Shown: in pieces, positions 5,969 through 26,769 of the stretch
Position numbering within the stretch: the stretch's first letter is position 1
Layout: the number at the start of each line of letters is the position of its first letter
Translations under genes and position numbers: made by a program
DNA from: Planctomycetota bacterium
GTDB lineage: Bacteria; Planctomycetota; UBA8742; UBA2392
Reading direction: 5' to 3'
DNA length: 64,000 nt
NCBI GenBank assembly: GCA_025993795.1
Contig: JAMQHL010000006.1
Location: 17,397-81,396 of the forward strand
The notes under the pieces: model-generated
The model's input: only the letters and a program-made list of their open reading frames with translations
The model's database searches: none
Told to the model about the DNA's origin: nothing

Positions 5969-6295
5969 ATGGTCAAAAACATCGATATGCAGGACCTGAA
6001 AGACGCCCTCGACGGCGGCCGCGTCGTTGCGCTGTACGACAACCGCGGTCCCGGCAGCTACGGTGCGCGCCATATCAAGGGCGCGAAACTGCTGCCCGTC
6101 AGTGACGTGCGCCCGGAGAATCTGCCCGCCGACAAGGGCGCGATGCTGGTCTTCTACTGATCCGGCTATGCGTGAGACTCCTCTACGAAGGCGGCCCGTG
6201 CGGCTGATGCACTCGGATTCACAAACCTGTGGGACTACCGCGGCGGCATCGCCGAATGGTCCGAAGCCGGCTTGCCCGTCGGCGGCAGCGGTTGA
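5969..6295 (+). CDS. Rhodanese-like protein with two in-frame TGA codons (putative double selenocysteine, UxxxxU), 108 aa
   Basis: Strong RBS AAGGAGGAG before ATG 5969. Reads DNRGPGSYGARHIKGA...LVFY-TGA(6158)-SGYA-TGA(6173)-DSSTKAARAADALGFTNLWDYRGGIAEWSEAGLPV. The complete rhodanese C-terminal signature (GG...W...GLPV) continues in frame after both TGAs. Confidence 0.85.
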
Positions 6296-6369
6296 GATTC
6301 CTGTCCCAATCCTGAACAGTCCGGACTAGAATCCATGCGGACTATCCCGGAACTGAACAGGAGTCGATC

Positions 6370-7416
6370 TTGCTCAAGCGAATGCCCCTATGGGCGCTGG
6401 CAGCAACGTGTGTTGCGCTCGTGGCGCGCTGCGCGCCAGAGCCACAGCCGAACAAACCCGAGCCGGCGCCCAAGGTACAGGGTCTTCCGGTGCCCTACAT
6501 CGCCATCAACGAGCCAACCGCCGACAAGCGGTTTCATGTCTTCCACGGCGACCAGGCACTCACGATCGAGAAGCCCGAACTCCAGCTCGGCCCGCTGCTT
6601 GCGAAGTTCGCCAAGCACAAGGACGAAAAGGCCGGCTATGCAGGCTGGCATGACTCCTATTCAGAGAACGTCCTGTCGCTTCATGTTGCAGCCAATGCAC
6701 CCAGCGGCGACGTCTGGGCAATCCTGTGCGCGGCAGCCGAAGCCGGCATTTACAAGCTGGCGGTCGGCACGCCTGAGCTGATCGGCGAACCGCTGGCTGG
6801 ACCGACGTCGCCGGACTTCGAAAATCTACCGACGGGTTACATGAAGGTGGAGCTGCCCAAGGACGAGGGCCTGAGTTCCGCGCCCAGGGTGCCAAAAGAG
6901 CGGATTACCGCTTACATTAATTGGGACCCTGCGCACCAGGCTGCCAGCGCGGTCGTGGCGATTGACGCGCGCGGTCGCAAGCCCGTGGACGACACGTTTA
7001 CAGTCGTTTCGGACGTCATCCCGACAAAGGGTGACAGCAAGCAGGTGCAGGAAGAGCGCAAGTCGCGGCGCGAAACCTGGATAGACAATGTTTGCAAGGC
7101 GATCGAGGGCTACGTAGCCAAGGCAGGCGGATACATTGGGCGGCTGGAGATCGCGAGCACAGGTGCAAGCAAAGATGACGGGACGCCGCCGTGGGTTTTC
7201 GTGGACCTGACCTGGCAGGCCCTTTCCAAAGCCAACGCGAACCGCGTCAGCGCCGGCAAGGAAGAGCTTGCGATCGTGCTGCCGCCCCAGATGCAGGTCC
7301 CGGAGCCGCCGCCGCCCGAGTTGCCGCCCGAGAGAGGCGTCGAGTTCCCCAGGGACGAACCTGAGCGAGAGGGCCCGACAGAAGACGAACGCATCGTACC
7401 GGACGGCGACGACTGA
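6370..7416 (+). CDS. Putative lipoprotein with an ExbD/TolR-like periplasmic domain and a Pro/Glu-rich tail
   Basis: TTG start with RBS AGGAG; lipobox-like VARC; segment LSLHVAANAPSGDVWAILCAAAEAGIYKLAV resembles the ExbD fold. Confidence 0.55.
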   Translation: MLKRMPLWALAATCVALVARCAPEPQPNKPEPAPKVQGLPVPYIAINEPTADKRFHVFHGDQALTIEKPELQLGPLLAKFAKHKDEKAGYAGWHDSYSENVLSLHVAANAPSGDVWAILCAAAEAGIYKLAVGTPELIGEPLAGPTSPDFENLPTGYMKVELPKDEGLSSAPRVPKERITAYINWDPAHQAASAVVAIDARGRKPVDDTFTVVSDVIPTKGDSKQVQEERKSRRETWIDNVCKAIEGYVAKAGGYIGRLEIASTGASKDDGTPPWVFVDLTWQALSKANANRVSAGKEELAIVLPPQMQVPEPPPPELPPERGVEFPRDEPEREGPTEDERIVPDGDD

Positions 7417-7427
7417 AGAGAAAGCAA

Positions 7428-7536
7428 CCGACATCCGCGGGAAGGACCGTCGCCGGAGTGCTCTCGGCGGCGACCACAGTAATGCCGAGGGGCATCCCGG
7501 AAGACTCTGCGCATTGAGCAGAAGTGACCCTGACGA
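7428..7536 (+). ncRNA. Candidate structured small RNA
   Basis: Non-coding gap containing hairpin GTCGCCG...CGGCGAC and hairpin TCTGC...GCAGA, a possible TCCG/CGGA closing pair, and a terminator right after it. Family not confirmed. Confidence 0.45.
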
Positions 7537-7545
7537 TCTAAAGAC

Positions 7546-7573
7546 ACCCCGCCGGGCGGCGGGGTTTCTGTTT
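7546..7573 (+). terminator. Intrinsic terminator
   Basis: ACCCCGCC-GGGC-GGCGGGGT stem-loop followed by TTCTGTTT. Confidence 0.7.
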
Positions 7574-7703
7574 GGGCATAGCCCTTTCTCTGCAACCGTG
7601 GGTCGTTATCATCCGCAACGCTTTGTCGCGGATTGCCCGCACGGGGGTCCGCACATGACGGACGAAGCCGCCGCCCCACGACATGGGGCCATGGAGTGCG
7701 AAC

Positions 7704-10472
7704 ATGCCTGCCGAGATGCCGCCCCGGTTTACGCCGGGGACGATCGAATCCAAGTGGTACCAGTTCTGGCAAGAGCACGCGCTGTTCAAGGCCGTGCGCG
7801 ACATTCGCAAGAAGCCCTTCACCATCATGATTCCGCCGCCCAACGTGACGGGCGCGCTGCACATGGGTCACGCGCTAAACAACACACTGCAGGACGTGGT
7901 GGCACGCTTCAAACGCATGCAGGGCTTCTGCGTGCTGTGGCTGCCGGGCACCGACCACGCCGGTATCGCCACCCAAGCCGTAGTCGAGAAGAAGCTGCTT
8001 AAAGACGAGGGCAAGACCCGCCAGGAGATGGGCCGCGAAGCCTTCGTGGCCGAGATCTGGAAGTGGAAAGATGAATACGGCAACCGCATTCTCAACCAGT
8101 TGCGCCAGCTTGGCGCAAGTTGCGACTGGTCGCGCACGCGCTTTACGCTTGATGAGGGCCTGACACGTGCCGTGCGCGAGGCCTTCGTGAAGCTGTTCGA
8201 GAAGGGCCTGATCTACCGCGGATACCGCATGATCAACTGGGACTGCAAGTTGCAGACCGCGATCAGCGACGACGAAATCGAAACCAGTGAAGTGCGCAGC
8301 AACCTGTGGTACCTGCGCTATCCCTACAAGGACATTCCCGAAAAGTACGTGGTGGTGGCAACCACGCGGCCCGAAACCATGTTCGGCGACACCGCAGTGG
8401 CTGTGAACCCGAATGATGAGCGGTTCAAGAGTGACATCGGCAAGAAGGTGGTGCTGCCGCTGACGGGGCGCGAAATCCCGATCGTCGCCGACGACAGCGT
8501 GAACCCGGAGTTCGGCACCGGTGCCGTGAAGGTGACGCCGGGCCACGACTTCGCCGACTATGAGCGCGGCCAGCGGCATAACCTGCCGATGATCAACGTG
8601 CTGAATAAGGACGGCACGCTCAACGAGCAGGCGGGCAAGTACGCGGGCGAAGACCGCCTCAAGGCCCGCAAGGCACTGGTGGAAGAGCTCGACGCGCTGA
8701 AGCTGCTCGAGCGCGTGGAAGAATACACCCACCAGGTGCCCCACAGCGACCGCAGCAAGACGCCGATCGAGCCGCTGCTTTCAGACCAGTGGTTCGTGTC
8801 CATGGCGCCGCTGGCCAAGCCTGCGATTGAGGCCGTGAAACCCGCCCCCGACGGCAAGCGCGAAGTCACGCTGATCCCTGAACGCTGGGAAAAGGTGTAC
8901 TTGAGCTGGCTTGAAAACGTGCGCGACTGGTGCATCAGCCGCCAGTTGTGGTGGGGACATCGCATCCCGGTGTGGTACGACGCCGACGGCAACACCGTGG
9001 CGCTGCGCGAAGACCCCGCACCAGGCGCGACGCACCCCAAGACCGGCAAGCCGCTTGTGCGCCAGGACGATGATGTGCTGGACACCTGGGCCAGCAGCTG
9101 GTTGTGGCCATTCAGCACGCTGGGCTGGCCCGAAAAGACCGCTGACCTGGATTACTTTTACCCGACGCATTTCCTCAGCACGGCGCGCGACATCATCTAC
9201 CTGTGGGTGGCGCGCATGGTGATGGCTGGCTACGAGTTCCTGGGCGAAAAACCGTTCACCACGGTGTATCTGCACGCGACGGTGCTGGACGCGCAGGGCC
9301 GGCGCATGAGCAAGTCACTGAACAACGGCATCGACCCGCTGGACATGTTCGCGCAGTGGGGTGTTGATGCGGTGCGCCTGACGCTGCCGCTGCTGACCAG
9401 CGAAGGCCAGGACATCAAGCTGTCGGAAAGCAAGTTCGAGATGGGCCGCAACTTCTGCAACAAGTTGTGGAATGCCTCGCGTTTCGTGATCAGCAACCTC
9501 GCTGATTTCGAAGACCAGCTCAAGGCACTGTCCGACAACGAACGCGCAGCACTGGCCGAGGGCCAGGTGAACGAGCTTGAGGACAGCTTCATTGAGGGCA
9601 AGCTGACCAGCACGATTGTGGACGTGACGGACTCGATCGAACGCTACAAGTTCAACGACGCCGCCCAGACCATGTACCACTTCGTATGGGACGAGTTCTG
9701 CGACTGGTACCTCGAAGCCGTGAAGGCGCGCCTGTACGAAAGCAAAGGCGGCGAGCGTTCGCGCCTGCGCGCCCAGTCAACGTTGGTGCGTGTGCTTGAC
9801 GGCACCCTGAAGCTGCTGCACCCGTATGTGCCATTCATTACCGAGGAGATCTGGCAGACGCTGCGGCCGATGCTGGCGGCGCTGCGACGCGACACGCCCG
9901 AGCTGAGCCTTGCCATTGCGTCCTGGCCCAAAGCCAGCAAAGACCGCGTGTTTGAGCAGGCACAGGCGCGCTTTGCTTTCATCCAGCAGGTGACGCGGGC
10001 CTTTCGCAACATCCGCGCCGAGCACGCCATTGAGCCCAAGACCGCGATCGACGGCACACTGCGGCTCGCCGATAAAGCCGCGCTCGACATGCTGGGCCAG
10101 GCCGAGCGGGAAACGGTGTGCAAACTTGCCGGATTGGCAACACTGACCGCAGAGGTGGGGGCGCACAAACCCAAGGCGGCGGCAACGGCAGTGCTGGGCG
10201 GCGGCAATGAGGCGTATGTGAATCTGGAGGGCCTGATTGACTTCAAGATGGAGCTGCTGCGCCTTGAGGCCAACCAGGCCAAGCTGGCCGAGGGCGTGAC
10301 CAAGCTGAAGCGCAAGCTCGAGAACCTGAGCTATATCGAGCGCGCACCGAAAGATGTGGTCCAGCGCGACCGCGACAGACTGAGCGAGCTGGTGGCTGAG
10401 CTTGAACGCGTGGACAAGCACATCGAAGAAGTGAAACCCCGCGCCAAAGCCCAGGCCAAGCCGTCAGCATAG
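7704..10472 (+). CDS. valS: Valine--tRNA ligase
   Basis: PPPNVTGALHMGH (HIGH), GTDHAGIATQ, DWCISRQLWWGH, RMSKS (KMSKS) and a C-terminal coiled-coil arm; GGAG RBS before ATG 7704. Confidence 0.98.
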   Translation: MPAEMPPRFTPGTIESKWYQFWQEHALFKAVRDIRKKPFTIMIPPPNVTGALHMGHALNNTLQDVVARFKRMQGFCVLWLPGTDHAGIATQAVVEKKLLKDEGKTRQEMGREAFVAEIWKWKDEYGNRILNQLRQLGASCDWSRTRFTLDEGLTRAVREAFVKLFEKGLIYRGYRMINWDCKLQTAISDDEIETSEVRSNLWYLRYPYKDIPEKYVVVATTRPETMFGDTAVAVNPNDERFKSDIGKKVVLPLTGREIPIVADDSVNPEFGTGAVKVTPGHDFADYERGQRHNLPMINVLNKDGTLNEQAGKYAGEDRLKARKALVEELDALKLLERVEEYTHQVPHSDRSKTPIEPLLSDQWFVSMAPLAKPAIEAVKPAPDGKREVTLIPERWEKVYLSWLENVRDWCISRQLWWGHRIPVWYDADGNTVALREDPAPGATHPKTGKPLVRQDDDVLDTWASSWLWPFSTLGWPEKTADLDYFYPTHFLSTARDIIYLWVARMVMAGYEFLGEKPFTTVYLHATVLDAQGRRMSKSLNNGIDPLDMFAQWGVDAVRLTLPLLTSEGQDIKLSESKFEMGRNFCNKLWNASRFVISNLADFEDQLKALSDNERAALAEGQVNELEDSFIEGKLTSTIVDVTDSIERYKFNDAAQTMYHFVWDEFCDWYLEAVKARLYESKGGERSRLRAQSTLVRVLDGTLKLLHPYVPFITEEIWQTLRPMLAALRRDTPELSLAIASWPKASKDRVFEQAQARFAFIQQVTRAFRNIRAEHAIEPKTAIDGTLRLADKAALDMLGQAERETVCKLAGLATLTAEVGAHKPKAAATAVLGGGNEAYVNLEGLIDFKMELLRLEANQAKLAEGVTKLKRKLENLSYIERAPKDVVQRDRDRLSELVAELERVDKHIEEVKPRAKAQAKPSA

Positions 10473-10618
10473 TCGTTTGGCTTTCACCACCCGGCCCCGC
10501 GAGCAATCGCGGAGCAAACCATTTGCGGCCAATAAAATCAAAAGAAACGCACACGCTTAAGCCGATGAAATGCATGTCCCGCATCGACGGGGAAATGCGT
10601 CCACCACCGGAGTCTGCC

Positions 10619-11332
10619 ATGGCCAACGTACTCATCACCGACCTGTTTGAGGAATCTGCGTACCTGGTGCGCAGCCTGCTGCGCGGGTCCGGCCATGCAG
10701 TCAGCATTGCGATCACCCGCGCCGACGCGGAGGCCAAGCTGGCCACCGGGTTGTTCGACATGCTGGTGATGGACTACGGCAGTGTGGTCGAAGACAATCT
10801 TGCCGTGGGCCGCTTCGCCAACGACGTGCTGCCCGGCTTGCCTGTGGTAGCGCTGGTCAGCCCCGAAAAAGAGTCACGCATCAAGGGTGTGCAGCTTGCG
10901 GGCAAGTTTCAGCGCCCCATCCGCGGTCGCCTGGTCAAAGAGGTGGTGCACAACGCATTGGCCAGCCTGTTTCGTCAGAGCACCCGCCGCGCCGTTCAGC
11001 GCGTGCACGTGGACCTGCCGATTGAAATCAACGTCGCCGGCGTCAACTTCAAGACGCGCACGATTGATCTTTCCGCGCGCGGTGTCGCCATCGACGCCAC
11101 CGACGTGAAGTTCAAGCCCGATGAACTTGAGGCAATCGAGAACGTCGTCGGCAGCGGAACGGCCCGCGCATCGCTTACCCTTGACGAAGGCAAGATCGTT
11201 CAGCTTTCGGCAAAGCTGGCATTCGTGGAACGCCACCGCTCGCTGTCAGGCCGCACCATCGGCCTGCGCTTTGAAGACCTGGATGAGGAAAGCGAAGTCG
11301 CCCTCAGCGGATTGTACGCCAGAGCCGCCTAG
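10619..11332 (+). CDS. Receiver-like domain plus PilZ domain protein
   Basis: N-terminal REC-like fold (VLITD..., MLVMD); PilZ motifs RxxxR (RAVQR) and DxSxxG (DLSARG); GGAG RBS. Confidence 0.8.
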   Translation: MANVLITDLFEESAYLVRSLLRGSGHAVSIAITRADAEAKLATGLFDMLVMDYGSVVEDNLAVGRFANDVLPGLPVVALVSPEKESRIKGVQLAGKFQRPIRGRLVKEVVHNALASLFRQSTRRAVQRVHVDLPIEINVAGVNFKTRTIDLSARGVAIDATDVKFKPDELEAIENVVGSGTARASLTLDEGKIVQLSAKLAFVERHRSLSGRTIGLRFEDLDEESEVALSGLYARAA

Positions 11333-12066
11333 CGCACGATCACGGTGGGTTCTTCGACGTAGCCCAAGCCGCCGGCGCGGTCCATGACGAACTGCGGGCT
11401 GCCGCTGCCGGTGCGCACCAGGTGATATTCAATCCGGTAGACCAGCCCCAGTGAATCTGCGGCGTCTTCCAGCCACCCCCGCGTTTCATGGGCGTCCTGG
11501 TAGAGCTCGTTGAACTTGCGCGGCGCCTGCGTCACGACGCTTCCGTCCTGGTTGCGCGGCAGGTGCGCAAAGCCGTTGGACGTGAAGTCGGCGCCATAGA
11601 CGTTGGCCACGTAGGCGAACACCCTGCGCCTGACAGTCACTCCGATCACGTCAGTCGGTAACTCGCTCAGGCCTTTGACGGAGTGGTGGTCACCCTGCCC
11701 AAAGAGCAGGCGGTAGTGGTTCTGGCCCTGCGCGTCAACGAACTCATGTCTTAGCTTGAAGGCCTCAACCAGTCCAAAGCTGCGGGTCGAGATTGAGCCG
11801 TTCTTGTGCTCCAGAATGACTTCCTGCGTCAGTTCCTGGACCAGCGAGTTGCGCGCGAGGTCAAGCGGCGAAATCACCTCAAACCCCAATTCGGCGCTGA
11901 ACCCGTCTGAAGATACACGGGCCGAGCGTTCCTGTTTCACAATGATCGAGTACGGCGGCGATTGGCGCTGCTGACGCTCGACCTTGGCCGGAGTGGACGA
12001 ACAACCAGCCGCCAGCAATGCCAGCAACAGCGCGCCAAGAGTGAGGGGGCGAAATGTTGATATCAT
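11329..12066 (-). CDS. Hypothetical lipoprotein
   Basis: Signal peptide with lipobox LAAGC; no recognised domain. Confidence 0.7.
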   Translation of the reverse strand: MISTFRPLTLGALLLALLAAGCSSTPAKVERQQRQSPPYSIIVKQERSARVSSDGFSAELGFEVISPLDLARNSLVQELTQEVILEHKNGSISTRSFGLVEAFKLRHEFVDAQGQNHYRLLFGQGDHHSVKGLSELPTDVIGVTVRRRVFAYVANVYGADFTSNGFAHLPRNQDGSVVTQAPRKFNELYQDAHETRGWLEDAADSLGLVYRIEYHLVRTGSGSPQFVMDRAGGLGYVEEPTVIVR

Positions 12067-12299
12067 GGCGGTCTCCAGCCTTCCGCTCGCCCGCCCCTAT
12101 ATTGTTTACGCAAGTCGTTGCCTGCGCAAGCACTGGATAGACGACAACTTCAAGGGGTTGTTGGCGTCATCGTTTCATCATCGGATTTTCAGGGTTTTTA
12201 CTTGAGCTCAATGGCTCAGTGCCTACTCTCTCCCCCTTCATATCGGACAACTGACGCTATTCGCACGATCCCTTGGACCTATTGTGAGGAACGACGCCC

Positions 12300-13904
12300 A
12301 TGCTTTTGACACACAAATTGGCACAGCGAGCCACGCTTGCTGTCGCCGCGGCCCTTTCCGTACTGGCAGCCGCATGTCAGCCTGACGCCAAAGAAGACAG
12401 CAAGCCTGAGCCGGTCAGCTTTGGCTCAAGCACCCTGCCGGCCCAGAACGCCGCACCGGGCGAGATTCTGGCCATTGAAGTCAATGGTTCCGGCTCTGAA
12501 ATCAACGCAGGTTTCCTGGTTGAGTTCGACAACGGCACCGACAAGGCCGCCATTCCGCCCTTCCATGTTGAAGCCGGCAAGGCCTACGTGCTTGTGCCGC
12601 CATTTGCCCAGACCGACACGATTGTCAATCTCGCGCTGGTTGACATGAACGGCGACACCCTTGATCGCCACCCGCAGCCGCTGACCATTCACGCCTTCGA
12701 GACCACACTGTCATACACTCGCGGCACATTCGACGCGGTCATGGGCAACGGCCTCAGCCGTCTCGTGGCGCTTGCGGTCGAGACCGTGGACACGCTCTTG
12801 CAGGAAGGCTTGATTACAGCGTCGGACGCCAACGTCGCCAGCGGTGCATTGGGCCAGCAGGCCGATCTGTTGCAGACGATCGGTACGTTCAACAACAACC
12901 TCAGCGACGCAGAACTTGCGGTCCTGCAGCAGTTGCTCGACAACAGCGAAATCCTTGACCTGCTGGCGCACGCCGGCGGCGTTTCGTTGACGCAGACCTA
13001 CAGCAGCGGCAGCCCGCTGTACAACGGCACCGCGGCGATGATTGAGTCGGCGCTGCTCAAGGCCGACTTCGCGAGCCTGCTGATGGGCGAAATCCGCGGC
13101 GTGATGGCGCTGCTGGCGTGGGCCGGCAATGCCCTGTCCGGCGTGCCGATCATCGGCCCGTACGCGCAGCAGATTGCGACCTGGGCAGCAGGCGTCAGCG
13201 CCACGCTGCAGACACCGCACGACCTGATCAACACTCTGATCCCGTCTGACCTTGTGCGCGTCACCGCAGGCTCGACCCAGATGACCCTGTGGCCCGGCAG
13301 CAGCGGCAGCGTGCTGGCCAAGGGTCGCTTTGAGACAGAGCAGCCGTTCAACATGGCGCTGTTCCAGCAGACAGTCGGCTCGGCGGCAACGGCCGCCGCA
13401 AGCTGGATCACCCAGCGCATGCAGCAGTACCCGACGATGGCGCAGTATGCGGTGTATGTGCAGCAACTGGCGTCCATGGTGCCGCAGTGGCTCACGAACT
13501 GGATGACCCAGCAGGGCTTCTTCCAGCAGAGTGTGGTGCCGGGCAGCAACTACACCGTGCTGGTGATCGACAACTTCAACCTGTACATGGGCCAGTACCG
13601 CTTCAGCATTGGCGGCATCGTTGCCAACCTGCTCAACGTGCCCTACAACGTAATGAGCGCAATTCTCAGCATCATCGGCCTGGGCATGGGAGCGCCGCTG
13701 GGCGGCTGGGAAGGCGTGCGCGTCAGCAACAGCGCAGTCGCGACCTACAACCCCAACGCCGACACCGTCTGGGCCAACGCCCGTGGCGGAGCAACCATTA
13801 CCTGCGTCGCGCCGCATTGCCGCCCCGCAGGCGGCTGGTGGGCACAGTGGGGTTTCTACACGATCAAGACCAACACAGCGTCAATTCCGCTGACGGTCAG
13901 CTAG
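12300..13904 (+). CDS. Hypothetical lipoprotein (Ig-like N-terminal domain, hydrophobic helical core)
   Basis: Lipobox LAAAC; coherent high-GC codon usage; followed by a terminator. Confidence 0.75.
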   Translation: MLLTHKLAQRATLAVAAALSVLAAACQPDAKEDSKPEPVSFGSSTLPAQNAAPGEILAIEVNGSGSEINAGFLVEFDNGTDKAAIPPFHVEAGKAYVLVPPFAQTDTIVNLALVDMNGDTLDRHPQPLTIHAFETTLSYTRGTFDAVMGNGLSRLVALAVETVDTLLQEGLITASDANVASGALGQQADLLQTIGTFNNNLSDAELAVLQQLLDNSEILDLLAHAGGVSLTQTYSSGSPLYNGTAAMIESALLKADFASLLMGEIRGVMALLAWAGNALSGVPIIGPYAQQIATWAAGVSATLQTPHDLINTLIPSDLVRVTAGSTQMTLWPGSSGSVLAKGRFETEQPFNMALFQQTVGSAATAAASWITQRMQQYPTMAQYAVYVQQLASMVPQWLTNWMTQQGFFQQSVVPGSNYTVLVIDNFNLYMGQYRFSIGGIVANLLNVPYNVMSAILSIIGLGMGAPLGGWEGVRVSNSAVATYNPNADTVWANARGGATITCVAPHCRPAGGWWAQWGFYTIKTNTASIPLTVS

Positions 13905-13924
13905 TTACAACGCAGTGTGACTCG

Positions 13925-13950
13925 AGGGGGCTCCAGCCGGAGCCCCCTTT
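13925..13950 (+). terminator. Intrinsic terminator
   Basis: AGGGGGCTCC-AGCC-GGAGCCCCCT followed by TT. Confidence 0.65.
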
Positions 13951-15072: not shown

Positions 15073-15113
15073 GGAACTGAGTCGTCCCGCATGAGGACCA
15101 CGTGATTGAACGG

Positions 15114-15287: not shown

Positions 15288-17882
15288 ATGAGCGAATCGA
15301 AATCCGCCACCTCTACCGCTGTCCAATCTGAAGCCCCGCTTGTGCCCATTCTGAGCAAGCCTGAATTGCTGGCACCCGCGGGTTCCCTGGAGGCGTTCTA
15401 TGCAGCGATGGACCAGGGCGCCGACGCGGTATACCTGGGCCTGAAGAAGTTTTCTGCCCGCGACAACGCGGTGAACTTCAGCCCCGAAGACCTGGACTTT
15501 GCGGTCGGGCACGCGCGCAAGCTGGGGCGCAAGGTTTACGTCGCGGTCAACACCGTGATCCAGCAGACCGAATGGCCCGAGGTCTGCGAATCGCTGGCAC
15601 TTTGCGAAGAGCTTGGCGTTGACGCCATCATACTGCAGGACATGGGCGTGATGCGCGCGGTGCGCGAACAGTTCCCGCGCCTGAAGTGGCACGCCAGCAC
15701 CCAGATGTTGATCCATAACGCCGAGGGCGCCCGCTGGGCCGAACGCAACGGGTTTGAACGCGTGATCCTGGCCCGCGAACTTACGCTGGACGAAATTGCA
15801 GCCATCCAGCGCGCCAGCGGCATCCAGCTTGAGGTCTTCGTGCACGGCAGCCTGTGCTACAGCTACAGCGGCTTGTGCCTGTTCGCCAGCCAGGAAGAGG
15901 GCCGCAGCGGCAACCGCGGCAAGTGCACGTACATCTGCCGCGACACCTTCAAGACCGACAAGGGCCAGGGCAAGGCATTTTCGATGCGCGACCTGTTTGC
16001 CGCAGCCGACATCGGCCGGCTGGCGCAGCTGGGTGTGTCTTCGCTGAAGATCGAAGGCCGCCGCAAGCCGCCCCTGTATGTGGCGTGCGTGACTGACCTG
16101 TATCGCAAGCTGCTTGATGGCGTCGAGGTTGACATTCATGAGTACGAAGACCGGCTCAAGCTGATTTACGCGCGCGAGACCACGTCGCTGTTCCTGCACC
16201 AGAGTCACGGCGACGCCAAGGCCCAGGCCGACATTCGCGAAAGCGAACCCCAGGGCGTTCCGCTGGGCAAAGTCGAGGCAATCCGCGGCGACCGCATGCA
16301 CTTTCGCGCAGACCGCGCGTTTGAACGCCACGACGGCATTCTGGCGCGCCACGCGACGAACCATGAGGATGGGGGCGTGCGCTTCGGCGCCGATCGTCTC
16401 AACCTCGCCGGCAAGCGCGTGTTCACGATCAACGCCGGCGAAGAAGTCAGCCTGCCCATTGAGCCCGGCGTGAAGGAAGGCGACGAGCTGCGGCTTGTGT
16501 CAAGCAACGCCATCAAGCGCCAGTACCCCACGGGCATCCCGCGCAAGCAGGAGCGCGCCCGCGTGCCCGTGCACCTGGACATCGCACTGAAGGTCAACCC
16601 CGGCGCCGGCAGGCTGGCAGAGTTGGGCATGCCCGGCTTGATCGAGATTGTCGGCCGTGTCTTCAACCTTGAGCTGCGGCGCGAGTACCCGTGCAAGCTG
16701 TTGTTCGCGGACCGCCAGCCGCTGGATGAAGACCGCCTGCACGAGTTCTTTGACCGGCTTGGCAGCACGCGCTTTGAACTGCGCAACTTCAACGCCGTGA
16801 TCCCGGCGGGCGTGTTCATCCCGGCTGCTGAAGTCAATGAAGCGCGCCGGCAGTTTTTTGAGGACCTGGAAGCGGCGGTGTTGGCATCGCGCGTCAAGAA
16901 CCACCTGGATGCAGCAGCGGCCGTGACGGCCGAGCCGCAACAGCCGATCGACGAGAACGCGTTGCCGCCCACGCGGTTCGCGGCGCTGGTGGACCGTGCG
17001 GAGTACATTCCTGCTTTGCCGCTGGAACATCTGCATGAAGTCGTGCTCGACATTGCGCACGGCACAAAGGACAGCGTGCTGGATGCGTGGGAAGAGCATG
17101 GCGACAAGTTGCGCATCCAGGTGCCGATCATCCTGCGCTCATGGAACGCGCCGATGGTGGCGGCCAAGCTGCACAGCTTGTGGGAAAAGGGTGCCAGGCG
17201 CTTCCAGGTTGCCAACCTGGGCGGGTTTGAGTTCATCGCCCGCGCCGCCGGAATTGACAAGAAGCGCCGTGTGAACACCGCGCAGATCATGCGGCGCTCA
17301 CGCAGCATCAGCCCGCGCGCGGGTGTTGCGATCTATGAGCCGCAGGTGCCCGAGTTTGAGCGTCACGGCATTGACGTGTCAACAGATTGGCCGTGCTACA
17401 CAATGAGCCGCGAAACGGCCCGAAGCTGGATTGAGCAGGGCGTGTCGCGCATCACGCTCAGCATTGAAGATGGCATCGACAACATGCGCGAGATCCTGCG
17501 CGAGTTCGCCAGCGTCAGCGACGTCGTGGTGTACCAGGACACGCCGCTGTTTACCGCCGAGACCTGCGTGTATGCCAACATGCTCGGGCATTGCCCCGGC
17601 AAAGCCAAGTGCGACTTTACCAGCATGGAAATGATCGCGCCGGATGGCCGCAAGTATCTTGCCCTCGACAACTGGTGTCAGACCATCATCTTGGGCGAGC
17701 AGGCCTACTGCCTTGGCAGCCGCATCCGCGAGCTTGAGAAAGCGGGCGCCCACCGCTTCCGGCTCGACTTCACAAACCGCGCTTACACGCCCCCGCAGAT
17801 CCGCCAGATCTGTGAGCAGGTGATGAACGCCCAGGCCGTACCCCAGACCCACGAAGGCAACTGGACCCGCGGCTTGCAGTAG
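15288..17882 (+). CDS. U32 family protein, long form (RlhA-like rRNA hydroxylation protein)
   Basis: PELLAPAGS, GADAVYLG, HASTQM, LARELTL, EVFVHGSLCYSYSGLC, RSGNRGKCTYICR and SLKIEGR motifs; DUF3656-like middle region and a second degenerate U32 domain. Confidence 0.88.
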   Translation: MSESKSATSTAVQSEAPLVPILSKPELLAPAGSLEAFYAAMDQGADAVYLGLKKFSARDNAVNFSPEDLDFAVGHARKLGRKVYVAVNTVIQQTEWPEVCESLALCEELGVDAIILQDMGVMRAVREQFPRLKWHASTQMLIHNAEGARWAERNGFERVILARELTLDEIAAIQRASGIQLEVFVHGSLCYSYSGLCLFASQEEGRSGNRGKCTYICRDTFKTDKGQGKAFSMRDLFAAADIGRLAQLGVSSLKIEGRRKPPLYVACVTDLYRKLLDGVEVDIHEYEDRLKLIYARETTSLFLHQSHGDAKAQADIRESEPQGVPLGKVEAIRGDRMHFRADRAFERHDGILARHATNHEDGGVRFGADRLNLAGKRVFTINAGEEVSLPIEPGVKEGDELRLVSSNAIKRQYPTGIPRKQERARVPVHLDIALKVNPGAGRLAELGMPGLIEIVGRVFNLELRREYPCKLLFADRQPLDEDRLHEFFDRLGSTRFELRNFNAVIPAGVFIPAAEVNEARRQFFEDLEAAVLASRVKNHLDAAAAVTAEPQQPIDENALPPTRFAALVDRAEYIPALPLEHLHEVVLDIAHGTKDSVLDAWEEHGDKLRIQVPIILRSWNAPMVAAKLHSLWEKGARRFQVANLGGFEFIARAAGIDKKRRVNTAQIMRRSRSISPRAGVAIYEPQVPEFERHGIDVSTDWPCYTMSRETARSWIEQGVSRITLSIEDGIDNMREILREFASVSDVVVYQDTPLFTAETCVYANMLGHCPGKAKCDFTSMEMIAPDGRKYLALDNWCQTIILGEQAYCLGSRIRELEKAGAHRFRLDFTNRAYTPPQIRQICEQVMNAQAVPQTHEGNWTRGLQ

Positions 17883-17995: not shown

Positions 17996-19367
<1,372 letters not shown>

Positions 19368-19375
<8 letters not shown>

Positions 19376-20145: not shown

Positions 20146-20194
20146 GATACTGAAATCGTGGCCGTCAGTCCCCTAATCATCACCGGAGGCCAAC

Positions 20195-20956
20195 ATGATG
20201 TTCCTGAACAATACAGAAATCGGCACCGTCACGCGCGTCGTCGGCATTGAGCCCGGCGTTGACTGCATCGTCATCGAGAACGGCATCGGCGACGTCAAGG
20301 TCGAAGCCGGCCGCCCCGGCATCGTTGAAGTCATAGCCCGCTTCAAGGCAAGTCGCGACGCAGCACCCGTGAGCGACCGCGACGTGGAAATCACGCAGGG
20401 CGACGGCTGCATGAAGATTCGTGCATCCGACGCCGCCATCGGCGCGCGCCGCGTCAGCTACGAAGTGCGCGTACCCATGGCCATCAACGTCAAGGTCAAG
20501 GTCGCCGTCGGCGGCATTGACGTGAAGGGCCTGAGCGGTGAACACAGCCTGCGCACCGGCGTCGGTGTCATCACCGTCGAAGCCGAACGCATCGCGGGTG
20601 ACAGCCACTTCCGCGCAGGTACCGGCAAGGCGAACATCTCAACCCATCGCCTGGAAGGCCGCGTACAAGGCCATATCGGTGCGGGCAACATCACGCTGAA
20701 GGCTGGCTCGGCCATGCTCGAGAGTGCGAACTTCAAAGCCGCAACCGGCAACATTCACCTGCATCTGCCGGTGACGTTCATTGGGCAGATTGACTTCAAA
20801 AGCGCCATGGGCGGCGTGAAGCTGAACAACGACATTCACCTGGTGCCGTTACAGACCACGCTGGTCGGCAGCCGCGCAAAGGGCGCCCTGGGGCAGGGGC
20901 CCGGGTTGGTCCGCGCGTCCGTCGCGGTCGGCACAATTTCGCTTGAACGCAAGTAA
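20195..20956 (+). CDS. DUF4097-like beta-repeat protein
   Basis: GGAGG RBS; repeated GxI/V strand motifs (NGIGDVKV, AVGGIDV, GVGVITV, GAGNITL, ATGNIHL). Confidence 0.75.
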   Translation: MMFLNNTEIGTVTRVVGIEPGVDCIVIENGIGDVKVEAGRPGIVEVIARFKASRDAAPVSDRDVEITQGDGCMKIRASDAAIGARRVSYEVRVPMAINVKVKVAVGGIDVKGLSGEHSLRTGVGVITVEAERIAGDSHFRAGTGKANISTHRLEGRVQGHIGAGNITLKAGSAMLESANFKAATGNIHLHLPVTFIGQIDFKSAMGGVKLNNDIHLVPLQTTLVGSRAKGALGQGPGLVRASVAVGTISLERK

Positions 20957-20975
20957 CGCTGCGGCGCGCGGACCT

Positions 20976-21008
20976 AAAAGAAAAGCGGACGGCAATCGCC
21001 GTCCGCTT
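20976..21008 (-). terminator. Intrinsic terminator of the SRP RNA (possibly bidirectional)
   Basis: AAGCGGACGGC-N-GCCGTCCGCTT stem followed by TTTTCTTTT on the minus strand. Confidence 0.8.
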
Positions 21009-21009
21009 G

Positions 21010-21097
21010 AGTTAGGTGGGCGCACCCGAGGGGGTTCGCTATGGCTGCTTCCTTTCGGACCTGACCAGGTTCACGGCCTCTCGCCGCGCCCACAACT
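21010..21097 (-). ncRNA. ffs: Signal recognition particle 4.5S RNA
   Basis: Minus strand reads GTGGGCGCGGCGAGAGGCCGTGAACCTGGTCAGGTCCGAAAGGAAGCAGCCATAGCG...GTGCGCCCAC. It carries the helix-8 signature TCAGGTCC-GAAA-GGAAGCAGC and self-complementary ends. Confidence 0.93.
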
Positions 21098-21179
21098 ACA
21101 GTATCCGCGCAGCATCGCAGGTCAAGGGATGGTTCGGGCCAACCTGGACGTTCTCACTGCGTTGAACATTGGGGTGAAC

Positions 21180-22130
21180 ATGCCGCGAGTTCTTGTACTG
21201 CTGTTGATTCTTGCGGCGCCACTGGCGGCGCAGGACACCGAGAGCTTAAGCGGTTCCGTGCCCGGTGATCGACGCCTGACGCTGCTGTATGAAATCGACT
21301 TCGGCCCCGGCAGCACAAGCTGGACGCTGGCTTGCGGCCTTACCACCAACGCCGTTGGCGGCTTGATTGTGCGGCTGATCGACCTCGATGGCCTCGCATC
21401 CAGCGCGGTACCGAACCCGACTTCCGTGGACGAGGCAGTCGTGCTCGGCGCGGGCACAGCCAATGCTGCCCTCAGTGGCAACTACAGCGGCGTACGCGAG
21501 TTTGCAGTTGAGATCGAAACCGCGCAGGGCAGTGCCGCGTCGGACTATTCTGGCAGCCTTACGAGCAATGCCGGACAGATCGAATTCGTGATGCAGGACC
21601 AGATCATTCTTGGGGCCGGCGGCTTGAAGACGGCGGTTAAGCGATTCGCATTCTGGGACGGCACAGTGCCCGCAGGGTCCATCGTGCCGGTTGGCCTTGA
21701 GCTTGATTTCGGCCCGTCGCCACGGACCGTATTTCTGCGCTTCGAGGGTGTGGGCACAAACATGGAGCGCATTGAGCTGTTTGACACCACCGGCGGCTCG
21801 GCATTGTCGCTGGCGACGTTCACCAACCCGACTGGCGGAGACGTCACCGCCGTGCCGCTGACACACAGCGGCAAGGTCTACATTCGCGTGAACTGCAAAG
21901 CGTTCGCGGGCCAGAACGGCAGCGCGGCGTGGGCCATCAACGCGCCCAGCGGCATCAGCGTGCGGCGCGTCGGCAGCAGCGACAACCAGGGCGGCACCAA
22001 GACTGAATGCAGCACCGCGCCGGCACAATCACCGGCGTGGGCGCTGGCACTGCTGTTTGCCGTTGCGGTAGTGTCGCTGCGTCTTGCTGGCACGAAACGA
22101 AGCCGGCCCGTCAAGGTCAACGCGAGTTAG
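21180..22130 (+). CDS. Secreted beta-rich protein with a Cys-containing C-terminal sorting signal
   Basis: Signal peptide MPRVLVLLLILAAPLAA; two internally similar halves (EIDFGP / ELDFGP); C-terminus ECSTAPAQSPAWALALLFAVAVVSLRLAGTKR. Confidence 0.75.
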   Translation: MPRVLVLLLILAAPLAAQDTESLSGSVPGDRRLTLLYEIDFGPGSTSWTLACGLTTNAVGGLIVRLIDLDGLASSAVPNPTSVDEAVVLGAGTANAALSGNYSGVREFAVEIETAQGSAASDYSGSLTSNAGQIEFVMQDQIILGAGGLKTAVKRFAFWDGTVPAGSIVPVGLELDFGPSPRTVFLRFEGVGTNMERIELFDTTGGSALSLATFTNPTGGDVTAVPLTHSGKVYIRVNCKAFAGQNGSAAWAINAPSGISVRRVGSSDNQGGTKTECSTAPAQSPAWALALLFAVAVVSLRLAGTKRSRPVKVNAS

Positions 22131-23320
22131 TACTTGGCGCTGGTGGGGTCTACTTCGTCGCTCCAGCGCAGCATGCCGCCGATCATATTTTTGACTTTGT
22201 GGAAGCCCTGCTCTTTCAGAAAGCGCACGACCTGACCAGATCGCTGGCCGCTGCGTCAGTAGAACACCAGCTCTGCGTCTTTCTTGCTCTCGAGTTCCTG
22301 CCAGCGCTGCCCGAACTCGGGCAGCGGAATCCACGCGTCGTAGGGCAGCTTGCAGATGTCCAGCTCATTGGCGTTGCGCACGTCCACCAGGTACGGCTTG
22401 TCGCCCGCATCCATGCGCGCCTTGAGCTGCGCGGGCGTGATTTCGTCGGCATTCACGGCTGCATTCTCCTGTGCCTGGCGCGCCTTGGCGGCTTCTTCGT
22501 CGTTGGGCACACCGCAGAACTGGTGGTAGTCGATCAGCTCATGGATCGTGCGGTTCTTGCCACAGATCGGGCATTCCGGGTCCTGGCGGATTTTCAGTTC
22601 GCGAAACTTCATGCCAAGCGCGTCAAACACCATCAGGCGGCCTTTCAGCGGCTCACCGATTCCCGTCAGCACCTTGATTGTTTCCAGCGCCTGGATGCAG
22701 CCGACAATCCCCGGCAGCACGCCCAGCACGCCGCCCTCCGCACAGCTTGGCACCATGCCCGGCGGCGGCGGATCAGGGTACAGGCAGCGGTAGCACGGCC
22801 CGCCCGGCAATCCGAACACCGTTGCCTGGCCGTCAAAGCGGAAGATGCTGGCGTAGCTGTTGGGCTTGCCCTCAAGCACACAGGCATCGTTGACTAGATA
22901 GCGCGTCGGAAAGTTATCGGTGCCGTCGGCGACCACGTCGTAGTCGCGCACAATCTGGCGCGCGTTGGCGCTGCTGAGCGCGACCTCATGGATCACGACA
23001 TCCACGTTCGGGTTCAGGTCTTTGATACGGTTCTTTGCGCTGACCACCTTGCGAACACCGACGGTGCTTTGCCCGTGGATAATCTGGCGTTGCAGGTTTG
23101 AAACCTCCACAACGTCGAAGTCCACAATGCCGATGCGGCCGACGCCGGCCGCCGCAAGATACATCGCCAGCGGCGAGCCCAGCCCGCCGGCACCCACGCA
23201 CAGTACGCTGGAGCGTTTGAGTTTCTCCTGCCCGGCTTTGCCGAATTCGGGCAGGATAAGGTGGCGCGCATAGCGCTGAAGTTCTTCGTTGCTCAAAAGC
23301 GGTGCTGCGGTCGCAGTCAT
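22127..23320 (-). CDS. moeB: MoeB/MoeZ-type adenylyltransferase-sulfurtransferase fusion with TGA (putative Sec) at the rhodanese active site, 397 aa
   Basis: RYARHL, GAGGLGS, SNLQRQ, DGTDNF, CYRC and CPIC motifs. The rhodanese domain continues past TGA (22258-22256) as RSGQRSGQVVRFLKEQGFHKVKNMIGGMLRWSDEVDPTSAKY-TAA, the typical MoeZ C-terminus. Confidence 0.92.
22227..22244 (-). promoter_or_regulatory. Putative SECIS hairpin of moeB
   Basis: TGA, an 11-nt spacer, then GCGATCT-GGTC-AGGTCGT (7 bp including G-U pairs). Same spacing and GGUC loop as the E. coli fdhF SECIS. Confidence 0.7.
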
Positions 23321-23811
23321 TGCGAAGTCCCCAAACATCCACGGCCCGTGGAGGCGCAATGGTAGCGCCCGCCGCAGTCCATTCAATCGGCCGACCGGCC
23401 AATGCCGGGTCGGCGTGCCGCGTGCGCAAATGCGCAAACGGGCCATCGGGGGGCCATCGGGTATGAAGTACCGGATGCAGTTGCCGGCGTTGAATTCCGG
23501 CGTTCTTTGTGCTGATGCGCCCGGCCGCAACTGTCAGGCATCTGCCCGGTGCAACAGCGTTGCCCCATCTTGGTTGATCTCAGCCAACTGTCCTTTGGCC
23601 CCATCTACTGCGATGGCGCTCGATGACTTCAGTGCTTGGATGGCGGAGGATGCTCTCAAGTACACGTTGAGCGGCCTTTGCCCTTCGATACTTGTTTGCG
23701 CGCTCGGTTAAGTTCTGTGCGTCGGTCGGCCAGCGTTGTTTCCGTGAATCAACGCAGCTTAGCAGCCTCGAAGGCAGTGCAAACGGGCGCGTTGGTCGCT
23801 AGATTGCCCGG

Positions 23812-24645
23812 ATGCCCAGCAAAGCAGAAAAGAACCCGGCGACCGGCTGGCGTGAGCGCATGCACGAAGTGATCTTCGAGGCCGACACGACCGCAGGCAA
23901 AGTCTTTGATGTCGCACTGCTGGTGCTGATTCTGGGCAGCATTCTCGCGGTGATGCTTGAGAGCGTTCCCGAACTGGTAGCCGACCCCCGCTGGCGGCTG
24001 TGGCTGCGCGTCACGGAATGGACGCTGACGGGCCTGTTCGCGATTGAATACATCCTGCGCCTGCTGTGCGTGCGAAAGCCACTGCGCTACGCGGCCAGCT
24101 TCTTTGGTGTGATTGACCTGCTGGCGATTCTTCCTGCGCCGATCTCTTTGCTGTTCCCTGGCAGCCAGTCTTTTGCCGTCATCCGGTCGTTCCGTCTTTT
24201 GCGCGCCTTCCGCGTGTTCAAGCTGGCCCACTTCCTGACCGAGGCAAAGCAGCTTCGCAAGGCGCTGATTGCGGGCTGGCCCAAAATTGCGGTGTTCCTG
24301 ATGACGGTGCTGGTGTTGATCGTCGTTGTCGGTACCGCGATGTACGTGATTGAAGGCCCGGAGGCCGGCTTCACCTCGATTCCGCTAAGCATGTACTGGG
24401 CGATCGTCACGGTAACGACGGTCGGCTACGGCGACATTGCGCCACAGACCTCGCTGGGCAAGGCCGTCGCCGCGATGATGATGATCTGCGGCTACGCGCT
24501 GATCGTTGTTCCGACCGGCGTCATCGGCGCGGAGTTGAGCAAAGGAATGAAGCAACCCGTCAGCACGCAGGCCTGCACCAGTTGCGGGGCTGGTGGCCAC
24601 GACTCAGACGCGAAGTTCTGCCGCGCCTGCGGCGAGAAGCTATAG
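23812..24645 (+). CDS. Voltage-gated-type potassium channel with a C-terminal zinc ribbon
   Basis: S4 segment RSFRLLRAFRVFKL; selectivity filter TTVGYGD; CTSC...CRACG. Confidence 0.92.
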   Translation: MPSKAEKNPATGWRERMHEVIFEADTTAGKVFDVALLVLILGSILAVMLESVPELVADPRWRLWLRVTEWTLTGLFAIEYILRLLCVRKPLRYAASFFGVIDLLAILPAPISLLFPGSQSFAVIRSFRLLRAFRVFKLAHFLTEAKQLRKALIAGWPKIAVFLMTVLVLIVVVGTAMYVIEGPEAGFTSIPLSMYWAIVTVTTVGYGDIAPQTSLGKAVAAMMMICGYALIVVPTGVIGAELSKGMKQPVSTQACTSCGAGGHDSDAKFCRACGEKL

Positions 24646-24798
24646 CCCGCGCGACCACTCCGAGCGCAGTGGGTCTCACCGCGCAGGGCGCCCGGCTACG
24701 CTGAAAGCTGCATTCGGCTGGCCCGCACGCGGGTGGCGTGGTAGACTTGCCCTTGCGTAGGGACACGGCCTTCCTGAACTCGTCGTCGCGAGGAAGCA

Positions 24799-26769
24799 AT
24801 GTACAAGCTTTATGGCGTCAGTGTTGCCGTGCTCTCGCTACTGCTTGCCGGCTGTGATTTCTCCGGCGGCAGCGTCGGTGCCGGCTGACCGTCCCTGTTC
24901 TCTACGACGGACGTCGTCGTTGCCGCCGGCATGACCGAGCTCGACCCTGACCCCGTGGACACCCTGTCGGGCAGCGTGAACCTGTCGCGTTTCGGCGCGA
25001 CGGCGTTCACGCGTGTGTATGAGCTGGAAACTCCTGCAGCGACTGACTTCTCGTTTACTGTGATCGCCCGCGGGCTTGAGAACATGGGGCCGACGCGACT
25101 GTCACTGGGACACGTTGCCGATGGCGGCGTCGCCCCGACAATCGGCGTCGATAGCCTTGCCGCCGCTGGCCTGTTGCTGGATGGTTCGGGCCTTTCGAAC
25201 GAGGGCCCGGTACTGGATGCGACGGGCGACGGATTCTGCCGCATCACGTTGCGCGGACAGATCAGCGCCGACCAAGTGCTGCTTGTCCGCGTGCCGCGCG
25301 CCGGCGCCACCGACCTGATCGGCATTCGCATCCGCATCGGCAACAGCAGCGTGATCAACCTGCCAAACCAGGCGGCGCTTCCGTCGCGGCCGGGCTTGAC
25401 CTCTACCACGATCTACTCAAGCCAGTCCTATCACTTTGGTCTTCCGGCGATTGCCGTTTCCGGCGACCGCTACAGCGTGGTCACGTACGATGGCGACCCC
25501 GGGGTTCAAGGCTACGGCGAGCGCCGGCGCCGCTGGTTGCAGATGGACGCTCAAACCGGCACCGTCACCGGCGGCACGGCAAGCAGCGTGGCGCGCGACA
25601 CCGGCAACTGGCGAGACCAGGAGATCGCGGCGCCGGGCAACGTGCTGGCAGTGGTCTACACCGGCAACAACGAGGTGCGGGCCGACATCAGCCTTGACCG
25701 CGGCGCGACTTTTGCCATCCAGCGCAAGCTCAACACCGGCGTCGCCCACGGCATGCGCCTGGTGCAGATTGCCATCTCGGGCGACTACCGCATCGCATGC
25801 GTGTTCTGGGGCGCAGCCAAGACCCAGTGGGGCACAAAACTGATGCTGGTTGAAGCCACACCCACCGCCTTTGACGCCACCAACACACCCGCGGGTTACG
25901 ACTGGGCGGCCTCGGAACTCGTGCACGGAACCGGCTTTGATGTCGTTCCGCTGATCATGCAGGCCGAGTACAGCACCGGCGGCGATCTGGTGATCGGCTA
26001 TGGCTATTCATTCTGGTCGGGCGCCGGTTCGGTCGTCACGTTGACTTCGCGGTACCGCTGCGCGATGCGGCTGTGGGGCCAGACGGCGTTCAGTGACACG
26101 CAGGTGGATACGGTAAGCGGCAGTATGCCCAACGACCCGCATATCGCGCTGCTGGGCAGCGGCGCAAGCATGGAAATCTTCTACACGTGGGACAAGGACG
26201 ACGGCGTTCACCTCGCCCACAGCACCGACGCGGGCCAGACATTCACCACGGTTCACTCGGTATCCAACCCCGGAAGTCTGATGCCCAGCGTGCATGCCCG
26301 AATCGTCGGCACGGACAAGCGCGTGGACATGCTGTACCTGTCGCCAACGCCGTGGGGCCTTGAGCTGCACAACGCGCGCTGGCTCAACTTCACCCCTGCT
26401 ACTGCGCCGGTCGCATATGCCGTCACCACGGCAACGGCAACGCCCGGCGCCCCCGCGCCTGACCCGTCTCTCCCCGGCGGATCATGGATTACCATGACCG
26501 CATGGTTCGGCTACGACGCCGTGGTCAAGGGCGACCAGGTGGCGGTGGTCATCCATGAAGTGACCGTGGACAGCTATGAGTACTATCGGCAGCGCGGTAT
26601 GTTCACGTGCGCAGGCATCGCCCGTGCGGGCGGCGGAAGCGGCGGGTCCGGTGGGGGTGGTTCGTACACGCCACCACCGCCGGCGATACTGCTGCCCGGT
26701 ATGGGCCAGCCTGTGCCCGCGCCTGACCCGACTCACCGCAGCCAGTTGCGGATTGTGGTGCTTGATTGA
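24799..26769 (+). CDS. Lipoprotein (probable beta-propeller/BNR-like) with an in-frame TGA at codon 30
   Basis: GAGGA RBS; ATG 24799 gives MYKLYGVSVAVLSLLLAGC (lipobox) DFSGGSVGAG-TGA(24886)-PSLFSTTDVVVAAG, in frame with the 612-aa ORF. Asp-box-like motifs SLDRGATF and STDAGQTF. Confidence 0.7.
24904..24917 (+). promoter_or_regulatory. Putative SECIS-like hairpin after the lipoprotein TGA
   Basis: ACGAC-GGAC-GTCGT, a perfect 5-bp stem; the loop begins 21 nt after the TGA. Confidence 0.45.

Follow-up and report, generated by a model that had tools for sequence, protein, structure and literature searches.

The DNA analysed here, referred to as the window, is a stretch of 64,000 nucleotides (positions 17,397 to 81,396 of contig JAMQHL010000006.1, part of contig C9 of assembly GCA_025993795.1) from a metagenome-assembled genome (MAG) of a Planctomycetota bacterium. 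The assembly consists of 3.29 Mb in 75 contigs, with a G+C content of 62% and a completeness of 85%. Three genes in the window, which code for a small rhodanese, a MoeZ/MoeB-type adenylyltransferase and a lipoprotein, are interrupted by TGA codons (Table 1). A preliminary description of the window had placed internal TGAs at positions 6158, 6173, 22256 (minus strand) and 24886, and all four are in frame where they were placed. We propose that the four TGAs are very probably selenocysteine (Sec) codons, decoded by the normal bacterial Sec machinery in a family of uncultured Planctomycetota that would be rich in selenoproteins.

Table 1. Predicted selenoprotein genes of the window, their Sec codons and putative selenocysteine insertion sequence (SECIS) hairpins, and related genes on other contigs of the same assembly (coordinates with a C or L prefix).
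Feature	Position	Strand	Remarks
Single-domain rhodanese selenoprotein gene, 108 aa + TGA stop	5969..6295	+	Motif VFY-U-SGYA-U-DSS; two Sec codons
Sec codon 1 (U64)	6158..6160	+	Catalytic-Cys position of the rhodanese loop; TGA invariant in 12/12 loci
Sec codon 2 (U69)	6173..6175	+	Five residues past U64; TGA invariant in 12/12 loci
Putative SECIS hairpin CGGCC-CGUGC-GGCUG	6192..6206	+	Starts 20 nt from the UGA of U69 and 35 nt from the UGA of U64
MoeZ/MoeB-type adenylyltransferase (ThiF + C-terminal rhodanese) selenoprotein gene	22127..23320	-	Start at 23320 provisional; TAA stop at 22129-22127
Sec codon, catalytic Cys of the rhodanese domain (VFY-U-RSGQRS)	22256..22258	-	Cys/TGA pairing in homologues
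Putative SECIS hairpin CGAUCU-GGUC-AGGUCG	22228..22243	-	Starts 16 nt from the U of UGA; strict hairpin scan
Lipoprotein gene, 656 aa + TGA stop	24799..26769	+	Signal peptide LLLAGC; one Sec 11 residues past the lipobox Cys
Sec codon in the N-terminal tether (…GAG-U-PSLFSTTDVV…)	24886..24888	+	TGA conserved in the two closest orthologues
Putative SECIS hairpin ACGAC-GGAC-GUCGU	24904..24917	+	Starts 19 nt from the U of UGA
UU protein AQPLAGQ-U-U-GGG (TGA-TGA), after signal peptide	C43:122359-123222 (L219:16833-17696)	-	
UC paralogue AQPLAAQ-U-C-GGG, after signal peptide	C43, about 121199-122116	-	Just downstream of the UU gene
HMA/MerP-like periplasmic protein, two Sec codons 12 nt apart (GMG-U-GVA-U)	C65:1625-2122 (L248:21-518)	-	HMA match of 23.5 bits, just short of the cut-off of 24.8 bits

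The small rhodanese was recognized by the Pfam model Rhodanese (50.8 bits) in an alignment that covers both TGAs, and BLASTP aligned U64 with the active-site position of MoeZ (LVFYC). An orthologue with two TGAs was present in all 23 genomes of the family, our own included, with sequence identities of 52-89%, and was missing from all 18 of the more distantly related genomes searched. The motif FYU[AS]G..U was invariant in the 12 loci examined. In the RNAalifold consensus of these loci, a single hairpin with five base pairs was the only conserved structure downstream of both UGAs, and nothing was conserved between the two. Third-position entropy was zero in all 12 loci for codons +11 to +14 (GCG GCC CGT GYG), which form the 5' arm and the loop of the hairpin, compared with 1.0-1.8 bits for other conserved four-fold codons of the gene; this freezing of the third positions indicates that selection acts on the RNA itself. 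Two relatives carry, next to the double-TGA gene, an additional rhodanese paralogue that contains only one in-frame TGA (G019, C20:29539-29853; G020, C82:25462-25773).

The adenylyltransferase contains a ThiF domain (278.6 bits) and a Rhodanese domain (55.9 bits). Among the NCBIfam models, it passed the cut-off for PRK08762 MoeB (461.5 bits, cut-off 449) and fell below those for PRK07411 (522.3 versus 633) and PRK07878 (468.9 versus 647). The nearest named records of this gene are from uncultured Planctomycetota MAGs obtained from wastewater and other environments. From 80 homologous loci, 59 fitted the active-site pattern and 21 did not. The active-site codon of the 59 was TGC in 46, TGT in eight and TGA in five, that is, Cys in 54 of 59. 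All five TGA-bearing loci are from the closest Planctomycetota MAGs, and the 16 closest loci comprise five with TGA and 11 with Cys. Judged from these codons, the site is a classic Sec/Cys pair that switches between the two residues inside a Planctomycetota family. A TGA-bearing orthologue (L043) has the hairpin CGGUCU-GGUC-AGACCG. Two homologues from named Planctomycetota MAGs (L048 and L049) have TGT (Cys) at the active site with the hairpin CGAUCU-GGUC-AGGUCG still intact, which looks like a fossil SECIS left behind by a recent change from Sec to Cys.

The lipoprotein has no family match in Pfam or NCBIfam. The BNR model gave a match below threshold (E=0.13, 12.8 bits, cut-off 27) and its look-alikes in the ESM Atlas reached only 0.77-0.78, so that a BNR/Asp-box fold is a weak lead. 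A search of the contig collection gave no relative, whereas a search of the family genomes identified homologues in 19 of 23. The TGA at 24886 separates the signal peptide from a 612-aa open reading frame (ORF) in the same frame. It could in principle be a true stop that ends a signal-peptide ORF of 29 codons, followed by an independent gene from the ATG at 24931. This ATG is situated 15 codons past the TGA, the ESM Atlas contains exactly the 612-aa product that would result (window positions 24931-26766), the coding potential upstream is weak and no Cys is aligned in the homologues. Yet, in the non-TGA homologues examined the signal peptide, the lipobox and the mature part are in one continuous frame, a conserved block (F[ST]T.[DE]V..AAG) precedes that ATG, and a protein starting at 24931 would be without a signal peptide. 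Furthermore, in the two closest orthologues (G018, 64% identity; G008, 63%) the tether is divergent apart from a TGA at the corresponding position. The three orthologues with a TGA all encode the GGAC-loop hairpin by identical codons (ACG ACG GAC GTC GTC), and the four homologues without TGA that were examined lack it. We consider a true stop unlikely at this site and favor a Sec codon in the tether. Since the Atlas has only the form that starts after the Sec codon, the public gene call would be truncated, with the signal peptide and the Sec residue cut off. In the relative G016, the orthologue is found in two overlapping pieces (C1:2552954-2554896; residues 14-136 with one TGA, and 132-656), which may represent a frameshift or a mis-assembly.

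UGA also serves as a stop codon in this genome, as the preliminary description had noted. Both the rhodanese and the lipoprotein genes end in TGA, as does the gene at 305-1324, which is located on the minus strand with its stop at 305-307. According to a self-trained ORF model, the window has 42 ORFs, of which 17 end in TGA (two of these being Sec sites), 18 in TAG and 7 in TAA; genome-wide, TGA ends 976 of 2475 ORFs (TAG 1013, TAA 486). TAG is the commonest stop in the genome as a whole (1013/2475), which is unusual at 62% G+C.

The components of the bacterial Sec-decoding trait, namely tRNA-Sec(UCA), SelA, SelB and SelD, are all encoded in the assembly, and none of them on the contig of the window; the window itself had already been described as lacking sel genes. 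The tRNA-SeC(tca) gene, 93 nt in length (C43:118807-118899), is the sole tRNA gene with a UCA anticodon among 54 tRNA and tmRNA genes identified by ARAGORN, and it scored 69.2 bits with Rfam model RF01852 (gathering score 47). The selA gene is located directly beside it on C43 (TIGR00474, 530.2 bits, above cut-off), selB is on C24 (TIGR00475, 332.9 bits, cut-off 242) and selD is on C70 (TIGR00476, 397.5 bits, above cut-off); the latter carries one in-frame TGA itself. The selA gene has been kept in all five relatives tested. In one relative assembled into three contigs (G004), the rhodanese gene, a gene with two adjacent TGAs (UU, see below), selA and Sec-containing redoxin genes share contig C1.

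UGA can also be recoded to cysteine, with the help of a SelB paralogue and a Sec-like tRNA that has Cys identity, and such a system had been suggested as an alternative for the window. It would agree with the alignment of most of the sites with Cys in homologues, and the incompleteness of the assembly leaves room for it. Yet the only UCA tRNA is typed as SeC and adjoins selA, the weaker tRNA-Sec-like matches in Rfam are tRNA-Ser(tga) and tRNA-Arg, and all other SelB matches reached at most 165 bits, so that neither a second UCA tRNA (ARAGORN) nor a second SelB above cut-off (TIGR00475) was found in the 85%-complete MAG. With selA and a Sec-containing selD also present, we regard recoding to cysteine as very unlikely, and insertion of Sec remains our preferred reading.

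In the pathway that we envisage, SelD would make selenophosphate and SelA would convert Ser-tRNA-Sec(UCA) into Sec-tRNA-Sec, which SelB would then bring to those UGA codons that have a SECIS hairpin behind them, inside the coding sequence. Sec would mostly replace redox-active or catalytic Cys residues in proteins of thiol-redox metabolism. In the two rhodanese domains of the window it would take the place of the catalytic Cys and possibly form an intermediate of the perselenide or selenenyl-sulfide type, whereas the Sec of the lipoprotein would sit in a flexible tether.

A codon-usage scan for read-through stops (W=20, threshold 0.2) found UxxC redoxins and none of the four sites in the window; it was replaced by a self-trained hexamer ORF model. 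Stops were selected if there was coding potential on both sides (class A) or coding potential upstream combined with a hairpin. For the resulting 266 TGA, 280 TAG and 141 TAA sites, about 100 residues on either side were translated with read-through of the stop and compared with Pfam. Domain alignments extended across the TGA at 15 sites, which belong to 14 genes: the rhodanese, MoeZ, seven ResA/TlpA-like AhpC-TSA/Redoxin proteins with UxxC motifs, PrxQ, a deiodinase-like protein, a DsbD-like Thioredoxin_7 domain, Fdh-alpha and the HMA/MerP-like protein with its two TGAs. The TGA in selD is crossed by TIGR00476. Six further genes without a family have TGAs that are kept in relatives, namely the lipoprotein gene, those for an FG-GAP protein with a W-U-C motif (12/12 matches), an H-U-W-T-C protein (17/18) and a G-C-V-U protein (19/19), and the UU and UC genes. 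In total, at least 21 predicted selenoprotein genes with 24 Sec codons are supported in the 85%-complete MAG. The suspicion of an unusually large and unannotated selenoproteome was thus borne out by the many additional cases in the genome-wide scan: it is largely unannotated, if not of record size. Three more candidates were placed outside the total (C42:62552-62962, C52+29378 and C72:53323-54015). The one on C42 (L213:18863-19273) is a short ORF rich in Cys and Gly that is interrupted by TGA twice (…ELG-U-CIGMC… and …LK-U-NCGPGG…). The FG-GAP selenoprotein has a motif (W-U-C-I-G-M) similar to the U-C-I-G-M of this ORF, whose relatives mix TGA, TAG and TAA.

The same pipeline was applied to the other two stop codons as a control. 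Among class-A sites, stops spanned by a domain numbered 12 of 169 for TGA and one of 254 for TAG/TAA, so that premature TAG and TAA stops are not equally frequent, as had been proposed as a sign of a low-quality assembly or pseudogenes. The sole credible TAG/TAA case is a GSHPx fragment with several TAGs (L230:36-623, the same as C50:19385-20231), which is probably a pseudogene; a further match, below threshold, spanned two membrane ORFs in tandem and is an artefact. Likewise, a read-through search with PF00578 in five genomes of the family identified an in-frame TGA in 37 of 95 AhpC-TSA matches (6/14, 9/22, 4/19, 8/23 and 10/17 per genome) and an in-frame TAA or TAG in none of the 95. The trait would therefore be family-wide, and TGA alone is the interrupting codon. 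These data also bear on the idea that the genes are pseudogenes, or that the TGAs stem from errors in assembly or sequencing. A MAG in 75 contigs invites such doubts, and the GSHPx fragment looks like a real pseudogene. Against this, the frames are open and conserved on both sides of the TGAs, and the same TGAs recur in independent genomes, as for the rhodanese (23/23), the HMA (16/16), the FG-GAP (12/12) and the G-C-V-U proteins (19/19). Together with the near absence of TAG/TAA interruptions, this makes decay or error an extremely improbable source of the TGAs, and Sec codons in functional genes the far better explanation.

The occurrence of three such genes within 20.8 kb was reproduced in 13% of simulations with 21 random positions. 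The trio is thus no special cluster given 21 genes, and would be very unlikely if there were only a few selenoproteins. The neighbours of the Sec genes in the window encode a valyl-tRNA synthetase (ValRS), a PilZ protein, a peptidase U32, a sigma-54 activator, an ion channel and DnaK. The idea that the three genes are functionally linked was rejected, as the neighbours are housekeeping genes and the spacing is compatible with chance.

Hairpins were scanned for across the genome with a strict rule, which required a fully paired stem of 5 bp or more with at most one G-U pair and a loop of 3-7 nt containing GG or GU, starting at nt 12-24. Such a hairpin follows 15 of 23 Sec-UGAs, compared with 75 of 966 terminator TGAs, 162 of 1498 terminator TAG/TAA codons and 246 of 2765 in-frame Cys codons, an enrichment after in-frame UGAs of about eight-fold. 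At single-Sec UGAs the hairpin starts 13-20 nt downstream, and the apical loops are GGUC, GGAC, GGA, GUU or CGUGC. Of the two GGNC-loop hairpins previously noted at 19-21 nt downstream, both exist; the spacing holds for the lipoprotein, whereas the MoeZ hairpin is closer than stated (Table 1). The loop of the rhodanese hairpin is CGUGC and not GGNC. The hairpins of the window genes can be classed as putative SECIS elements, with the exception of UGA 6158, for which there is no hairpin at canonical spacing. Such gaps would be expected if the full-length proteins resulted from leaky termination, in which UGA is read by near-cognate tRNAs independently of any SECIS, and they are seen at the first UGA of both the rhodanese and the tandem pair. 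The enrichment of hairpins and the frozen synonymous sites in the rhodanese hairpin argue against leakiness, as do the location of the sites at catalytic or redox Cys positions and the retention of the Sec machinery across the family, and we find it highly improbable. SECIS-guided insertion of Sec would account for these features.

Several observations weigh against the interpretation of the TGAs as Sec codons. In a crude count, stops flanked on either side by coding potential were not enriched in TGA (TGA 106, TAG 114, TAA 54; threshold 0.2). This count was dropped because it is dominated by adjacent genes in the same frame, and the total rests instead on the domain-span and conservation tests. 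As many as eight of the 23 Sec-UGAs fail the strict hairpin rule. The minimum free energy (MFE) of the 73 nt past each UGA was no better than that of shuffled sequences (z -0.93 to +0.94), which we attribute to SECIS hairpins being too small for an MFE test. For the rhodanese hairpin, RNAalifold found no compensatory change across the 12 loci, and UGA 6158 is 35 nt upstream of the sole conserved hairpin, while the stems of the single-Sec genes start at nt 13-20. In the lipoprotein homologues without TGA that were examined, the Sec position has neither TGA nor Cys, and a Cys counterpart is thus absent. Finally, at 85% completeness a second UCA tRNA or a SelB paralogue may have been missed in the MAG.

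Closely spaced Sec codons are not confined to the rhodanese. Two paralogous genes for secreted proteins are located directly upstream of selA and the tRNA-Sec gene on C43, on the same strand; one has two adjacent UGAs (UU) and the other a UGA followed by a Cys codon (UC). This UU/UC family is present in all 23 genomes of the family, in tandem arrays, and in our own genome and four of five relatives checked the array is just upstream of selA. A first pattern identified UU in 10 genes and UC in eight among 14 loci fetched, and a stricter motif identified 20 genes. RNAalifold predicted nothing for the 20 downstream stretches, which MAFFT had misaligned, and it was replaced by a hairpin scan of each sequence. 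A strict hairpin starts 14-24 nt past the first UGA in 18 of the 20 genes, compared with 198 of 1000 shuffles; the stem sequences are diverse and the loops recurrent (CGUGC, GGU, AGUU). The proteins have no match in Pfam or NCBIfam, and their look-alikes in the Atlas are clusters of Planctomycetota annotated as "thioredoxin-like" (0.94). The motifs tabulated in a review of selenoproteins include UxxU, UxxxxU and CU (PMC13188914), no UU motif was seen there, and a search of the literature on consecutive UGAs found nothing relevant. The double TGA of the HMA/MerP-like protein was kept in 16 of 16 matches, from 12 of the 23 family genomes.

We tentatively put forward the hypothesis, to which we would give a little less than an even chance, that one SECIS hairpin directs the insertion of Sec at two UGAs, whether these are 15 nt apart as in the rhodanese, 12 nt apart as in the HMA protein or adjacent as in UU, and that the UU/UC proteins represent a previously undescribed family of secreted, thioredoxin-like selenoproteins with a possible role in the periplasmic handling of selenium, or of a chalcogen or metal substrate. 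If this were true, the spacing rules for SelB and SECIS would be much looser than in the E. coli model. The sharing of a single hairpin by both UGAs in the rhodanese, like the insertion of selenium itself, is suggested here by comparative sequence data.

Our findings would add a family of Planctomycetota to the short list of selenoprotein-rich bacteria. In each such genome, gene calling is likely to truncate or split 21 or more genes, like that of the lipoprotein in the Atlas. The lipoprotein with Sec in its tether, the FG-GAP protein with W-U-C, the H-U-W-T-C and G-C-V-U proteins and the UU/UC proteins, all without a Pfam or NCBIfam match, are candidates for new selenoprotein families, some of which may already be catalogued. 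Furthermore, the genes in which two UGAs adjoin or are separated by a few codons provide conserved, natural test cases for how SelB and a SECIS within the reading frame deal with such pairs in bacteria.

Canonical insertion of Sec in bacteria depends on selABCD and an in-frame SECIS hairpin, as in fdhF of E. coli. The system described here is similar in that all four sel components are present, and in that hairpins with G-rich apical loops are found 13-20 nt past single Sec-UGAs. It differs in that several genes have two UGAs 3-15 nt apart and one evident hairpin, which leaves one of the two UGAs far from the usual spacing.

As for the number of genes, bacteria have been called selenoprotein-rich from six genes upward, with 39 genes given for Syntrophobacter fumaroxidans (PMC5029168), and larger selenoproteomes are cited for the Delta1 symbiont of Olavius (57) and a Methylomirabilota MAG (63; PMC13188914). 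The rich clades named in these sources are Thermodesulfobacteriota, Clostridia and Synergistota. Like these bacteria, the present genome would contain many selenoprotein genes, mostly for redox proteins of the thioredoxin fold with UxxC motifs. It differs in belonging to the Planctomycetota, and its count of at least 21 is below the records of 57 and 63. In the literature, we found no selenoprotein-rich Planctomycetota beyond an isolate with six putative selenoproteins (PMC4807772).

Among individual proteins, MoeB is already listed as a selenoprotein family (PMC13188914), consisting of ThiF-family adenylyltransferases with one Sec, and the MoeZ gene of the window looks like a member with no difference of substance. 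TsoB (NF045694) is described as a double selenoprotein that resembles a fusion of rhodanese and DsbD, with two Sec in a UxxxxU motif (PMC13188914). In NCBIfam the small rhodanese matched TsoB best, through the rhodanese domain of the latter (46.3 bits, residues 20-105), and both have the U-x4-U motif. Yet an assignment to TsoB was rejected, as the score is far from the cut-off of 805 and the 108-aa protein is a stand-alone rhodanese domain, without the DsbD-like membrane and thioredoxin parts of TsoB. A separate DsbD-like gene on C61 has a TsoB-like C-terminal thioredoxin domain with a Sec of its own (31.5 bits). The HMA/MerP-like protein on C65 resembles the UxxU metal-binding (seleno)protein NF041115 in having two predicted Sec in the metal-binding loop, but in its motif, G-M-G-U-G-V-A-U, the Sec residues are separated by three others, and it scored 27 bits against a cut-off of 95. 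What appears to go beyond the systems known so far are the close or adjacent Sec codons with an apparently single hairpin, the UU family linked to selA, and a Sec in a lipoprotein tether without a Cys counterpart.

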